Source of the DNA: Escherichia coli
Lineage (GTDB): Bacteria; Pseudomonadota; Gammaproteobacteria; Enterobacterales; Enterobacteriaceae
DNA length: 64,000 nt
NCBI RefSeq assembly: GCF_044324875.1
Contig: NZ_CP172185.1
Direction: 5' to 3' (one strand)
The notes under the pieces were generated by a model. That model was not told the origin of the DNA, did not search any database, and was given only the letters and a program-made list of their open reading frames with translations. Both the position numbers and the translations under genes were made by a program. Below are positions 13,385 through 17,902 of this stretch, piece after piece; the stretch's first letter is position 1; each line of letters starts with the position of its first letter.

Positions 13385-14629
13385 CTATAGCTGTTTATTC
13401 CAGAGATGCTTGAAAATATCTAATGTTGAGACAACATTGGCAGGCGACATTCGGTTTAATGAGGGTAGAAAGGGATGAGCCTCCAGAAAGTTGATAAAAC
13501 GAGTCGCGCTTGCCAACGTCGAATACCGCATTTCATTTGCTTTCTTGTTTCCTGTAAGGTTACAAACAGCCATTGAATAATCACGGGCGGAAAATGCACG
13601 CCAGACATTATTTCTCACGCCACCACTCAAAAATAACCGCGGCGGCGTATCATAATGAGTCGTTTTCTCGCCGCGTTCTTTCACAAATGAAATATGGCAC
13701 CGGCCTTGATGAATATGCTGTAAATTAGCCATCAGACAACCGCCTAATATAAAGCACTCGTGATCAAGGTAGTGTTGAATATTTATAGAATATGCTTCAG
13801 TCAGTGCTCTAACCAGTTCAAAATGGCGATACGCCGGAAGAACCGGTTTCACCAGCATCCCCGGATCGTTTTGATGTAATATCGCCCGACCATAATCAAT
13901 ATCAAATAAGGTATCACGCCGCATAGTAAGTAACTCCTTGCGTTGTACGTGATGCGCCAGTGTACCTGGAGACAAACGCTCTTCATAACTTGATGCATAT
14001 TGATAATGCGACTCTACCGCTGATGAAGAATAATTTGTTGAAATAGCGACGACTCTACCGCTTTGTTCTTCTGCGGTAACAAGACTATAAAGATAGTTGT
14101 TACTACCGTTAAACTTTACGCGAAAAGCGCGGGTAGATAGAGAAATATCAGAAGCAGAAGAATACTGGCAACTTTCTTTATAGTTTACTTCCCGGGCTAG
14201 TTTCATCAACTCACGGTTAAGCCCTGTGCTATTAAGAAGTAATAATTTACGGATATCTGCAAGTGAAGCGCCTTGATCAATCATCAATGCTAAATGTGTT
14301 CTTCGTGGCGTTGTATTTACATGATCCAGAGTGATAAAAGTTCTGGAACAATGATGACAATACATTCTCCTCTGCCCCTGAGCTGAATAGCCATACTTTT
14401 TCAGAGATGTGCTTCCGCAAGCTGAACATTGTGGAACCAACCCTCTCCATGAATGATTAACACGATTACGATAAATATTAAGAGATCGTTCAGATATCAC
14501 AGGAAACAAGTAACCGCATTCCCGACATAAAATATTTTTGCCTTGTGCAATATAATCCTGGCTATTCAACAACCCCAGGTTTTTGCATCCTGGTGTTTTG
14601 CAACAATCAACATTTACGTTGGTAAACAT
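13385..14629 (-). CDS. Cys-rich zinc-ribbon / HTH-like protein of unknown function (about 414 aa from the Met with the best ribosome-binding site)
   Basis: GGGAG ribosome-binding site before the second in-frame ATG (MFTNVNVDCC...). N-terminus carries CC-x4-C, CRECG, CSACG and CHHC pairs; the segment CSACGSTS...YCHHCSRTF followed by a helix-turn-helix-like stretch resembles the zinc-ribbon DNA-binding module of IS1 InsA-type proteins; the C-terminal ~280 aa have no family I recognise. Confidence 0.65.
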   Translation of the reverse strand: MFTNVNVDCCKTPGCKNLGLLNSQDYIAQGKNILCRECGYLFPVISERSLNIYRNRVNHSWRGLVPQCSACGSTSLKKYGYSAQGQRRMYCHHCSRTFITLDHVNTTPRRTHLALMIDQGASLADIRKLLLLNSTGLNRELMKLAREVNYKESCQYSSASDISLSTRAFRVKFNGSNNYLYSLVTAEEQSGRVVAISTNYSSSAVESHYQYASSYEERLSPGTLAHHVQRKELLTMRRDTLFDIDYGRAILHQNDPGMLVKPVLPAYRHFELVRALTEAYSINIQHYLDHECFILGGCLMANLQHIHQGRCHISFVKERGEKTTHYDTPPRLFLSGGVRNNVWRAFSARDYSMAVCNLTGNKKANEMRYSTLASATRFINFLEAHPFLPSLNRMSPANVVSTLDIFKHLWNKQL

Positions 14630-14758
14630 ATTCACTCCCTGCGAATACCCGGATATTATCGTCATATGTCAAAGAAAAGAACCTGATTCAATGTGTAACA
14701 TTGAATCAGGCGGGCATGGCCCTGAAAGGCATACATTACATATATTATGGTTATCAGA

Positions 14759-16252
14759 TTAGCCCCAGGTTACCGCTTCCGGTTTATCACCTCTGGCTTT
14801 CATTAATGAATCATTATCAATATCGGCTTTATACTTTAAGAACTTACCATACATTTGTTTTTCAATGTCTGGATTTTTACCTATCTGATTAATGGTCTCA
14901 AAACGATCGGTTTTGAGGTTGTATAGGTACTTTGGCTTATTGTTACGATCGATGATCATTTTCCAGTCACCATCACGTATCGCCCATTCGTCGGTTGGAT
15001 CATCCTGGAATGGCATGTCAATTCCGAAGATTAATGGCTTTTCACGTTTTAGCGCCTTGTTCTCAAGGACAGGAACCAACGATTCGCCATCAAAAGTCCG
15101 GTCCGTCGGTAATTTGAAGTTCATCATTTTCGCTAAAGTAGGCATCCAGTCCAGACCATAAACGGGTGTATCTGAAACCATTCCCTGTGGTAGATGTTTA
15201 CCATATTTAATAATCGCTGGAACACGAATTCCGCCTTCCCAAAGGTTATCCTTGCGACCGCGTAATCCATCCGTTTCCCCTGCCAAATTCAGCTCATACA
15301 CTTTGCGCGCTTCACGCGTTACCGGACCGTTATCACTGGTAAAAATAACAATGGTGTTATCTTCTTCACCCATCGCTTTGATTTTATCCAGCACTTTTCC
15401 AACCTGTGCATCCAGATAGCTGATATTGGCATAATATTCCCCCACACCACGCCAGGGTTTGTCTGCCCAGTCGCCATAAAATAAATCAGGATGCTGCTTC
15501 TGATACGCGCTCATATATTGTGAGTACATATCGAGGTATTTTTTGGGCGAAGCCAGGGGGCTATGCACTTCGGTAAAAGCGACATAGAGGAAGAAAGGCT
15601 TGCTGTCCTTTTTGTTATCCAGCCAGTTGACGACTTCCGAACTGACATACTCACCGCTCATTTTATCGGCTCGTGGAGTGGGTTGCCCATTACGCAACCA
15701 ACCCGTCGGATACACCATGCCAAAACGGGGACGCTCCTTCGCATTATCCAGAGTAGCGTCGGTAACAAAACCCGCCGTATTAACCAGTGAGTAATCAAAG
15801 CCCATATCTTTTGCCTGCGGCTGATCGGTGCGATCGCCGCCTGCATTCAGATGCAGCTTACCCATCATGGCCGTGTCGTACCCTTGCGCTTTGAGTAGAT
15901 TAGCAATCGTGAGTTCATTACGCCCTAATGCCACATCTTTTCCCGTTGGGATCCATGAGCGTATGCCGGTACGAAATGGCATCCGCCCTGTTAATAGTCC
16001 CGCCCGTGAAGGAGAACTTAAGGGGGCAGGTGCATAATAGTCGGTAAATTTGACGCCTTCCTGGGCAAGCCTGTCTATATTGGGCGTTTTAACGATCTGA
16101 TGTCCATATGTTGCTAAATCACCATAGCCTAAATCATCCGCCATAATGATGACTAAATTGGGTTGTTTAGTTTCGGCGGCTACGGCTGGATTAAAAGCAT
16201 TCCCTGTGCAAACTGCAAGGCCGATCAAACTGGCCATTAATGTTTTCTGCAT
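14759..16252 (-). CDS. Periplasmic Ser-type sulfatase (alkaline phosphatase superfamily)
   Basis: AAGGA ribosome-binding site before ATG (MQKTLMASLIGLAVCTGNAFNPAVAAE signal peptide); sulfatase signature P-L-S-S-P-S-R-A-G-L-L-T-G with Ser at the formylglycine position; metal-binding DDLGYGD near the N-terminus. Confidence 0.88.
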   Translation of the reverse strand: MQKTLMASLIGLAVCTGNAFNPAVAAETKQPNLVIIMADDLGYGDLATYGHQIVKTPNIDRLAQEGVKFTDYYAPAPLSSPSRAGLLTGRMPFRTGIRSWIPTGKDVALGRNELTIANLLKAQGYDTAMMGKLHLNAGGDRTDQPQAKDMGFDYSLVNTAGFVTDATLDNAKERPRFGMVYPTGWLRNGQPTPRADKMSGEYVSSEVVNWLDNKKDSKPFFLYVAFTEVHSPLASPKKYLDMYSQYMSAYQKQHPDLFYGDWADKPWRGVGEYYANISYLDAQVGKVLDKIKAMGEEDNTIVIFTSDNGPVTREARKVYELNLAGETDGLRGRKDNLWEGGIRVPAIIKYGKHLPQGMVSDTPVYGLDWMPTLAKMMNFKLPTDRTFDGESLVPVLENKALKREKPLIFGIDMPFQDDPTDEWAIRDGDWKMIIDRNNKPKYLYNLKTDRFETINQIGKNPDIEKQMYGKFLKYKADIDNDSLMKARGDKPEAVTWG

Positions 16253-16271: not shown

Positions 16272-17033
16272 TTAGAAATCATAACCAAGCATATAAATCA
16301 TTTGATCGCCAAAACCATCGTAGCCTAACTTATTATCGAAATAACGCCACGTCACACTGGCTTTCCAGCGAGGATAGAACTTCCAGGCAACTGTTAAACC
16401 GCCATTTAACCCATTCCGACCAAATTGTTGTTCCGCATAGGCATCATTTCTGTCCAGTTCTATTTCATTCCAGTTAGATAAAACAAATTTTTCGTCAAAT
16501 AACGTAAAAGGTAATACTGCTGTCCAGCCAACAACATAACCATTCCAGCCATTTGTTTGTCCATATTTGGCTGAGACGTAGTCTCCAGATTGATTATGTA
16601 ATCCAATATACGGTTTAAAAACCCCCCATGAACCATTCCAGCCGAGGTAGCCCAAACCATAAAACATATCAAGATCGTCACCCCATGAGTTATCCCATTG
16701 ACCATAGATCTTGCCAAAGAAAGTCATATTGGAGTCAAAAAGTCTGACATGTGTCATAGCAGAAACGGTATGATTACGCCCCGCTACGGCATGGTTAAGC
16801 ACATTGCTTTCATAAAATGAGTAAAACTCGGCTTCTTTAAAATTCACACCAAAGTCCGCAGTCACTTTCCATACTTCACCACGATGAGTGTTAACGAAGC
16901 CACTATTCCAGTCAGCATAACCTGCATTTATTGAGCCAAAGGAACCTTTATATTCTAATGAAGAATATGCAGGAAGGTGATAGAAAATCGTTGTCAGGGC
17001 ACACGCAATAAGAAGCCGTCTTTTGGCAGACAT
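16272..17033 (-). CDS. Small outer-membrane beta-barrel channel (Tsx/KdgM-like, 253 aa)
   Basis: Signal peptide, aromatic- and Gly-rich alternating strands, and a C-terminal ...GYDF with terminal Phe typical of outer-membrane beta-barrels; immediately upstream of the sulfatase on the same strand. Family assignment is approximate. Confidence 0.75.
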   Translation of the reverse strand: MSAKRRLLIACALTTIFYHLPAYSSLEYKGSFGSINAGYADWNSGFVNTHRGEVWKVTADFGVNFKEAEFYSFYESNVLNHAVAGRNHTVSAMTHVRLFDSNMTFFGKIYGQWDNSWGDDLDMFYGLGYLGWNGSWGVFKPYIGLHNQSGDYVSAKYGQTNGWNGYVVGWTAVLPFTLFDEKFVLSNWNEIELDRNDAYAEQQFGRNGLNGGLTVAWKFYPRWKASVTWRYFDNKLGYDGFGDQMIYMLGYDF

Positions 17034-17543
17034 ATAATATGCTCTCCATTCATTGTTTTTATGGTTCCATAGAAATCAATACATCAGATAATTCATTTTG
17101 ATTAAGAACGACTCAGAAAGTATATTTAAAGGTGAATGGCAAAGCGTGATGGAGATCGCAGATTACTTTTACCCCCGGGTGTGGAGGTATCGTGTTTCAA
17201 AAAGTGTGTCTATTTTAAATATCACTCATTGATTTATAGACATTTTTTCCTTATAAAAAAACACTAAATTCTGTACAAGAATTATTTTGTATCTTCTACT
17301 ACTTTCTCCAGTAATAACTCACCTTTCAGGCATAACTTAAATCTGCTTGTTCATAATCTCAATTTTTGTAAATGAAAAGGCACATAAGAGTTAAAATAAA
17401 CAATGATCTAAAGATTAATTACGCAAAAATGCGAGGCGTCTTCAAGATTAGAATCGATAAAACAGAATGGGTTAAAGAGAGCGATATAATAGCGGCGGGT
17501 GCTTGAGGCTGTCTGTCTCAGGCATTAGCTGAACGGCAGATAG

Positions 17544-17598
17544 AGAAAAGCCCCGAGTGATATTTTACTATCAACCCGAGGCCCCCTATATGCAGAAC
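17544..17598 (-). ncRNA. sokC: Sok-type antisense RNA of the hokC/mokC locus (approximate coordinates)
   Basis: Placed by the known architecture of hok/sok loci (antisense RNA overlapping the mok start on the opposite strand); coordinates are projected, not read from a structure. Confidence 0.35.
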
Positions 17599-17799
17599 AC
17601 ATGTAGAGTGCCTCTTACTGACCGTAAGGTCAAGGAGAAGAGAGCAATGAAGCAGCATAAGGCGATGATTGTCGCCCTGATCGTCATCTGTATCACCGCC
17701 GTAGTGGCGGCGCTGGTAACGAGAAAAGACCTCTGTGAGGTTCACATCCGAACTGGCCAGACGGAGGTTGCTGTTTTCACGGCTTACGAATCCGAGTAA
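17590..17799 (+). CDS. mokC: Mok-type overlapping regulatory reading frame (69 aa)
   Basis: In-frame extension MQNTCRVPLTDRKVKEKRA upstream of the hok ORF, sharing the same stop. Confidence 0.55.
   Translation: MQNTCRVPLTDRKVKEKRAMKQHKAMIVALIVICITAVVAALVTRKDLCEVHIRTGQTEVAVFTAYESE
17647..17799 (+). CDS. hokC: Hok-family type I toxin (50 aa membrane peptide)
   Basis: MKQHKAMIVALIVICITAVVAALVTRKDLCEVHIRTGQTEVAVFTAYESE, the canonical Hok/Gef sequence pattern. Confidence 0.85.
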   Translation: MKQHKAMIVALIVICITAVVAALVTRKDLCEVHIRTGQTEVAVFTAYESE

Positions 17800-17902
17800 G
17801 AGCAACGGCGGGGAGTGATCCCCGCCACTTTACAGGTGCTCGCATATCTTCAACGCACCCTGGTTTTACCCAGGCCTGCCCACGGGCAGGCTTTTGGGGA
17901 GG

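Follow-up and report, generated by a model that had tools for sequence, protein, structure and literature searches.

In eukaryotes, transposases have often been recruited as transcription factors, FHY3/FAR1 and many vertebrate factors among them; to our knowledge, such recruitment is hardly documented in bacteria. FHY3/FAR1 are plant transcription factors derived from Mutator-like transposases (PMC6000157, PMC13306707). Among prokaryotes, TnpA_REP (RAYT) has been described as the first domesticated transposase (PMC8266576). In the insertion sequence IS1, the zinc finger and helix-turn-helix (HTH) of InsA bind the inverted repeats of the element, and InsA represses the IS1 promoter (PMC12428005, PMC12903888). 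Here, we describe an Escherichia coli gene, hereafter X, whose product resembles InsA and InsAB' in having an HTH behind a Cys4 zinc ribbon, a homology detected at the profile level. In concept, X comes closest to the plant FHY3/FAR1 factors and to InsA. The likeness to FHY3/FAR1 is one of concept only, namely an N-terminal zinc-finger DNA-binding domain joined to an inactive transposase core in a host transcription factor; the plant proteins are eukaryotic, come from an unrelated domestication, use another type of zinc finger and carry a SWIM domain, and we claim no homology between them and X. TnpA_REP resembles X in being a single-copy, host-retained transposase derivative of gammaproteobacteria, but it is an HUH/Y1 enzyme of the IS200/IS605 type that remains catalytically active on REP sequences and does not regulate genes. 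Our literature searches found no publication on the X family.

The window analyzed here is a 64,000-nt stretch of an E. coli chromosome, in which X occupies positions 13385-14629 on the minus strand and encodes 414 amino acids plus a stop. By ORF translation, the ATG starts at 14629 and the stop codon lies at 13385-13387; a Shine-Dalgarno sequence, GGGAG (14635-14639), stands 5 nt ahead of the ATG. The reading frame, proposed as a gene in a first-pass annotation of the window, is real: PGAP calls the same CDS, and in other E. coli strains it annotates an identical one as [quoted passage not shown]. In contrast to InsAB', X is a single unbroken ORF of 414 codons with no programmed -1 frameshift of the insA/insB' type. 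The gene order in the window is dnaJ, mokC/hokC, a three-gene insert, nhaA and nhaR. The insert lies entirely on the minus strand and is comprised of a gene for a Tsx-family outer-membrane channel (16272-17033; "OmpK" in PGAP, assigned through Pfam Channel_Tsx matches of its orthologs), a sulfatase gene (14759-16252; 497 aa with a signal peptide, from the ORF and the annotation) and X. K-12 and O157 Sakai lack this insert. The sulfatase-channel pair was found in 1271 of 5426 complete E. coli genomes and full-length X in at least 1165 of them, so that X, the sulfatase gene and the channel gene are gained and lost jointly within the species; the cassette is present in about one quarter of E. coli genomes and X is missing from about three quarters. 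X is chromosomal, with a median of one place per genome across 5316 genomes.

Two further features of the window were recorded. The mokC/hokC type I toxin locus lies at 17557-17805, between dnaJ and the promoter region of the cassette, as in K-12, and the 80-aa ORF at these positions is the MokC frame. Positions 4000-10000 have a low GC content (33-41%, against about 52% elsewhere); the matching region of a near-identical strain carries a fimbrial chaperone-usher operon beside nhaR, while K-12 has IS1A instead.

The N-terminal module of X contains two zinc ribbons and an HTH. Its conservation was followed in an alignment of 71 homologs, the most distant of which share about 17% identity. Zinc ribbon 1 (aa 9-43; 14501-14605, minus strand) has the pattern CCx4C...CxxC and was delimited from Cys conservation and from the beta-hairpins of the predicted model (26-29, 32-35 and 41-43); its ligands C10, C15, C35 and C38 are each at least 90% conserved. 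IS1 InsA has no counterpart of this extra, N-terminal ribbon. Zinc ribbon 2 (aa 65-99; 14333-14437, minus strand), of the form CSAC...CHHC, was placed by the NCBIfam model NF050000 and by hhalign to InsA and InsAB'. Among its ligands, C68, C91 and C94 are invariant and C71 is at least 90% conserved. An InsA-like HTH region follows (aa 108-153; 14171-14308, minus strand), with helices at 108-119, 123-130 and 134-153 and with sub-matches to sigma region 4 and LuxR-type domains. The four Cys pairs pointed out in the first-pass annotation are all present (C9/C10..C15, C35..C38, C68..C71 and C91..C94), and their conservation shows that they are not due to chance.

The same annotation had likened the second ribbon and the HTH to InsA, and profile comparisons bore this out. 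NF050000 (IS1_IS1595_Zn) matched X with an E-value of 1.6e-7, above its cutoff. In hhalign, the X-family profile aligned to K-12 InsA with 96.8% probability (E 2e-10), pairing X 65-141 with InsA 5-84, an alignment that spans both the zinc finger and the HTH of X. Against full InsAB' the probability was 95.7% (E 1e-8), and only InsAB' residues 5-89 were covered. The NCBIfam model of the IS1 transposase matched X over positions 1-83 of its 199 only, with 27.8 bits against a cutoff of 100. A sequence search of the PDB with the X-family profile gave nothing beyond spurious matches of C2H2 zinc fingers to the Cys-rich N-terminus. Judged by homology, X would thus possess a sequence-specific DNA-binding domain.

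For the C-terminal part of the protein, the first-pass annotation had recognized no family. This stands for sequence libraries: a Pfam scan of X gave nothing significant, residues 158-414 have no match in Pfam or NCBIfam, and the domain has no detectable sequence similarity to InsB or PF03400. It does not stand at the level of the fold. The structure of X was predicted from an alignment enlarged by distant relatives, which were collected by an exhaustive phmmer search, and reached a pLDDT of 92 and a pTM of 0.92. Residues 158-414 (13388-14158, minus strand) are predicted to form an RNase H-like domain of the DDE-transposase type. The model runs through beta1 (161-173), beta2, beta3, alpha1, beta4 (258-260), alpha2, beta5 (283-288) and a further alpha helix, which is the order of elements in the DDE/retroviral integrase superfamily; after this core come a four-stranded beta insertion (aa 311-357) and the C-terminal helices. 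Compared with InsAB', the protein has the extra N-terminal ribbon, and its C-terminal domain is about 90 aa longer, contains the beta-sheet insertion and lacks the first two catalytic positions (D1 and D2). Insertion domains also occur in other DDE transposases, such as ISCth4 of the IS256/Mutator family (PDB 6xg8), Tn5, Hermes and piggyBac. X differs from ISCth4-type transposases in that identity is 7-10%, no PDB profile match is obtained, the triad is not conserved and X is not mobile.

The catalytic triad of DDE cores consists of an Asp on beta1, a second Asp directly past beta4 and a Glu that opens the helix past beta5. These positions were mapped in X by secondary structure and conservation, not by residue-level superposition, using alignments of 40 and 71 sequences. 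In both alignments, no Asp is conserved on strand 1 or past strand 4: beta1 carries S/T and F, and the position past beta4 reads K/R-P, with P262 at least 90% conserved. The sole conserved acidic site is E291, within a D/E-H-E motif that includes D/E289. The three catalytic carboxylates that characterize the DDE superfamily are therefore not found together in the X family; since beta1 and the position past beta4 lack Asp and only E291 is kept, two of the three are gone family-wide. The distance from P262, the D2 equivalent, to E291 is 29 aa, while that from D166 to E191 of InsAB' is 24 aa; both are short, the latter two residues being those that we take to be catalytic, at positions read from the InsAB' sequence. 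Pfam, NCBIfam and hhalign all failed to detect in X an InsB/PF03400 catalytic domain with its D...D(24)E signature, and hhalign alignments to InsB and to full InsAB', run to map the DDE residues, ended with the InsA part. Manual pairings of X 160-200 with InsAB' 100-143 and of "KPVLPAY" with "TDGWPLY" are suggestive only and were kept outside the evidence. Elsewhere in the domain, H269, R238, Y211 and W343 are invariant in the X family.

Next, we considered mobility and selection. The first-pass annotation had named terminal inverted repeats as the mark of a mobile element; a search around X showed that none flank the gene. The combination of terminal inverted repeats, multiple copies and mobility that distinguishes IS1 is absent from X, which, in contrast to IS1, is single-copy, syntenic and linked to host metabolic genes. 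Since three of the four defining features of IS1 fail, the database name "IS1 family transposase" is misleading for X. In comparisons among the window allele, another E. coli allele at 85% amino acid identity and E. albertii, X had a dN/dS of 0.08-0.12 at a dS of about 1. In the same comparison, the sulfatase, channel and nhaA genes had dN/dS values of 0.02-0.06; X evolves roughly 3-5 times faster than its neighbor genes. With a dN/dS of about 0.1, X is under clear purifying selection.

Close orthologs of X, at 33-36% identity, occur in cassettes of Klebsiella, Salmonella, Scandinavium and two more enterobacterial lineages. The order in these cassettes is Tsx-like channel, sulfatase, radical-SAM/SPASM maturase and, last, X. 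The linkage of X to the cassette holds in 8/8 close orthologs, and the cassette itself occupies at least three unrelated chromosomal loci across genera. Outside Escherichia, the stop of the maturase gene is only 8-27 nt from the start of X, and the Salmonella radical-SAM protein is an anaerobic sulfatase maturase (TIGR03942, 534 bits, cutoff 349). The maturase gene has been lost in all Escherichia examined, that is, two E. coli alleles and E. albertii, where a 129-nt spacer between the sulfatase gene and X takes its place. X has remained intact and under selection in Escherichia after this loss, and it is thus not merely a dedicated partner of the maturase. Nor is X itself an anaerobic sulfatase maturase, a reading that was rejected: the protein lacks CX3CX2C, as had correctly been read from its sequence before, and has no Radical_SAM or SPASM match in Pfam or NCBIfam. 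Its reading as FGE was likewise rejected.

The spacer between the sulfatase stop and the X start contains a terminator-like hairpin with a perfect stem of 14 pairs (14681-14711, minus strand) and a T-rich tail at about 14671-14680. The hairpin sits in the scar left by the loss of the maturase gene in Escherichia, and may uncouple X from the operon in E. coli. Just past it, at 14667-14672, is a consensus TTGACA; as it is accompanied by no convincing -10, we claim no promoter for X. A scan for sigma-70 promoters found sites no more common than in shuffled controls.

The sulfatase and its surroundings vary between genera as well. At about residue 79 of the sulfatase precursor, the formylglycine motif reads C-S-P-S-R in every genus that keeps an adjacent maturase, and S-S-P-S-R in 3/3 Escherichia alleles, all of which lack the maturase (the window was compared with loci L002, L004, L006, L007 and L017). 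The Escherichia sulfatase is under strong purifying selection (dN/dS 0.02-0.03); either a different radical-SAM enzyme would act on it in trans as its maturase, or Ser would now serve as its nucleophile. In Salmonella, the island from dnaJ to nhaA (L002, 404-11091) is larger than the E. coli version. The cassette has two arylsulfate sulfotransferase genes and a 5'-nucleotidase gene at its flanks, and its channel gene runs opposite to sulfatase-maturase-X. Such a gene content suggests a periplasmic pathway that joins sulfate-ester and nucleotide chemistry.

When the sequences ahead of the channel gene were aligned for eight cassettes, two conserved blocks stood out. The first is a candidate operator box, ATAAATCAATGAGTGAT, at 17221-17237 on the minus strand of the window, about 190-205 nt upstream of the channel gene. 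In the form ATAAATCAATrrGTTA, this block is shared by 8 cassettes from different chromosomal loci, at a distance of 150-205 nt from the ATG, and it is retained in Salmonella despite the inverted channel gene. Its core, ATCAATAAGTT, is the reverse complement of nt 11-27 of the IS1 inverted repeat (K-12 IS1A). With a PWM of seven promoter instances, the two ends of IS1 were the top two matches among about 1500 positions. In a control restricted to segment ends, 37 of 9000 random genomic segments equaled the IS1-end result; when the match could lie anywhere, 5.8% of random 768-bp segments held an equal one, and the absolute score was modest. Because the likeness of the box to the IS1 inverted repeat was noticed post hoc, we treat it as suggestive only. 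To this degree, the box fits an InsA-type domain of X that would still read an inverted-repeat-like sequence. Downstream of X, a second, inverted box of this kind was absent in 6/6 cassettes.

The second block, also upstream of the channel gene, is a CRP-like site, TGCGATCTCCATCACG (17145-17160, minus strand), with the counterparts GTGATAACAATCAC in Scandinavium and GAGATCTGCATCAC in Salmonella. It fits what we take to be the CRP consensus. A -10-like TATACT is found at 17119-17124, and the center of the CRP-like block is about 40 nt upstream of the start site that TATACT implies; the site and this spacing suggest a class II CRP-dependent promoter. X thus shows the combination looked for in a local regulator, that is, conserved gene linkage together with a conserved promoter cis-element.

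More distant relatives of X, at 17-30% identity, were found in Vibrionaceae, Agarivorans, Aliagarivorans, Motilimonas, Psychromonas, Celerinatantimonas, Proteus and Serratia. In 13 of the 14 loci examined, they lie beside deo genes or 5'-nucleotidase genes. The linked genes are deoC/A/B/D, add, Tsx-like and 5'-nucleotidase genes, to which the homolog is placed divergently or directly downstream. In one placement, it is divergent from a deo operon (TAL, add, deoC, deoA, deoB, deoD and sometimes a Tsx-like channel or nucleoside transporter); in another, it directly follows deoD; in a third, it adjoins a 5'-nucleotidase gene of the UshA/CpdB type. In Aliivibrio, two sulfatase genes, a 5'-nucleotidase gene and the X homolog stand in a row. 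Such a divergent or directly downstream placement is typical of local regulators. Given this linkage in the family and a nucleoside-type channel as the first gene of the cassette, the sulfatase cassette is tied to nucleoside and nucleotide scavenging. The classical E. coli regulators of the deo, tsx, cdd and nup genes are DeoR and CytR. Their target repertoire matches the putative one of the wider X family (deo operon, Tsx-type channels, nucleoside transport), and they likely share with X co-operation with CRP at the promoter. Their folds, a DeoR-type HTH with a sugar-phosphate-binding domain in DeoR and the LacI-family fold in CytR, are unrelated to that of X, which would be an analogous, non-homologous solution.

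Several additional members of the family were noted. A second X paralog, located between metL and metF, is present in 1700 of the 5426 complete E. coli genomes, and also in Salmonella and Citrobacter (7001-8014 of L009, 6986-8110 of L010 and 7001-8176 of L013, respectively). It has 22-26% identity and about 374-391 aa, is divergent from a 5'-nucleotidase gene of the UshA/CpdB type, and is named "hypothetical" or "cytoplasmic protein". Database names of X relatives include "IS1 family transposase", "cytoplasmic protein", "transposase-like protein" and "lactate dehydrogenase". The last is applied to members from Salinivibrio, Photobacterium and Vibrio in both RefSeq and UniProt (L011, 6968-8434; protein clusters P0123 and P0162-P0171); since a dehydrogenase domain is absent, it looks like a mis-annotation that has spread. 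In Alteromonadales-type genomes, a quasi-palindrome, TTAACCAwAwATGTTG, lies in the intergenic region between divergent deo operons and X homologs, 40-93 nt upstream of the start of the homolog (L019, L021, L023 and L026), and may be the operator of this subfamily. A word-indexed database profile search with the 71-sequence alignment yielded no further distant relatives. Putative transposase relatives in AFDB, E8WS89 among them, are about 570-630 aa long and labeled "Insertion element protein" or "C2H2-type".

The first-pass annotation had raised the possibility of a domesticated, transposase-derived regulator. The analysis supports this in part. The InsA homology, the DDE-type fold, the lost Asp residues, the linkage to the cassette and the upstream box agree with it, as do the single copy without inverted repeats and the purifying selection; binding of X to the box, regulation and ligand sensing are what we infer from them. 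We assign a probability of about 55% to the reading in which X, once an IS1-like transposase, has been domesticated and regulates transcription of the channel-sulfatase cassette in a pathway-specific manner. By this mechanism, an IS1-like transposase would have been recruited by the host and would no longer transpose. Its N-terminus, with two zinc ribbons and the InsA-type HTH, would bind a specific site, for which the box at 17221-17237 is the candidate. The RNase H-fold domain, minus two of its three catalytic carboxylates, would serve in oligomerization and/or effector sensing, and X together with CRP would control transcription of the channel-sulfatase(-maturase)-X cassette. The wider gammaproteobacterial family would act likewise on genes of nucleoside and nucleotide catabolism. 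Some points speak against regulation by X. The D/E-H-E motif and the invariant H269, R238, Y211 and W343 could be parts of a non-canonical active site instead of a ligand site, and the upstream box could be the property of another factor. Moreover, X stands at the end of the operon and is not divergent from it, in E. coli it lies behind the terminator-like hairpin, and it evolves faster than its neighbor genes. A bolder and more tentative extension, for which we see rather lower odds, is that the X family constitutes unrecognized one-component regulators from an IS1-like transposase across Enterobacterales, Vibrionales and Alteromonadales. The dead domain would sense a nucleoside-derived, possibly sulfated, effector, the operator would be descended from or convergent on the inverted repeat, and the proteins would control scavenging (deo genes, 5'-nucleotidases and Tsx channels) and the associated sulfatase pathway.

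Alternatively, X could work through its RNase H-like domain as an enzyme or an accessory factor, its active site being non-canonical and built from D/E289-H290-E291, H269, R238 and Y211, for example as a nuclease that feeds the 5'-nucleotidase and deo pathways, or as a factor for sulfatase maturation or export. The fold comes from the nuclease/transposase superfamily, several polar C-terminal residues do not vary over a range of about 17-100% identity, genes for enzymes of nucleoside and nucleotide catabolism are consistently found near members of the family, and the close orthologs adjoin the maturase. However, RNase H-fold nucleases need three or four carboxylates and only one conserved carboxylate is left; a complete InsA-type DNA-binding module is strongly conserved; X is intact and selected in Escherichia without the maturase; and X has no signal peptide, unlike the exported sulfatase, channel and 5'-nucleotidases. 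We regard an enzymatic or accessory role as unlikely. Still less probable, indeed improbable by a wide measure, is that X is a working, if unusual, transposase or site-specific recombinase with the sulfatase cassette as its passenger. The occurrence of the same cassette at no fewer than three unrelated chromosomal sites in different genera, the IS1-like box at the channel-gene end and the name "IS1 family transposase" given to members in some databases would agree with this, but neither the second inverted box (six cassettes) nor terminal inverted repeats were found, X is single-copy, and the D1 and D2 positions are non-acidic in every subfamily. Moreover, the paralogs beside core deo and 5'-nucleotidase genes show no passenger structure, and the match to the NCBIfam IS1 model stays far below its cutoff and within the N-terminus. 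A decaying IS remnant without host function would also be transposase-derived, short of catalytic residues and absent from most E. coli genomes, as X is. This explanation was rejected as scarcely credible, being contradicted by the selection and synteny data: the ORF has stayed full-length in lineages as far from Escherichia as 33-36% identity, dN/dS stands near 0.1 for a dS of about 1, the zinc ligands and some 15 other positions are invariant, and the position of X within the cassette is conserved.

The X family keeps a full transposase architecture, has lost the catalytic aspartates, and is fixed beside metabolic genes in three gammaproteobacterial orders. Names such as "IS1 family transposase", "cytoplasmic protein" and "lactate dehydrogenase" inflate counts of insertion sequences and mask a probable regulator. 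If X and its relatives are regulators, they would account for the local regulator still missing at deo and 5'-nucleotidase loci of many marine gammaproteobacteria, and X would provide a handle on an uncharacterized periplasmic sulfatase pathway carried by about one quarter of E. coli and by Salmonella and Klebsiella.
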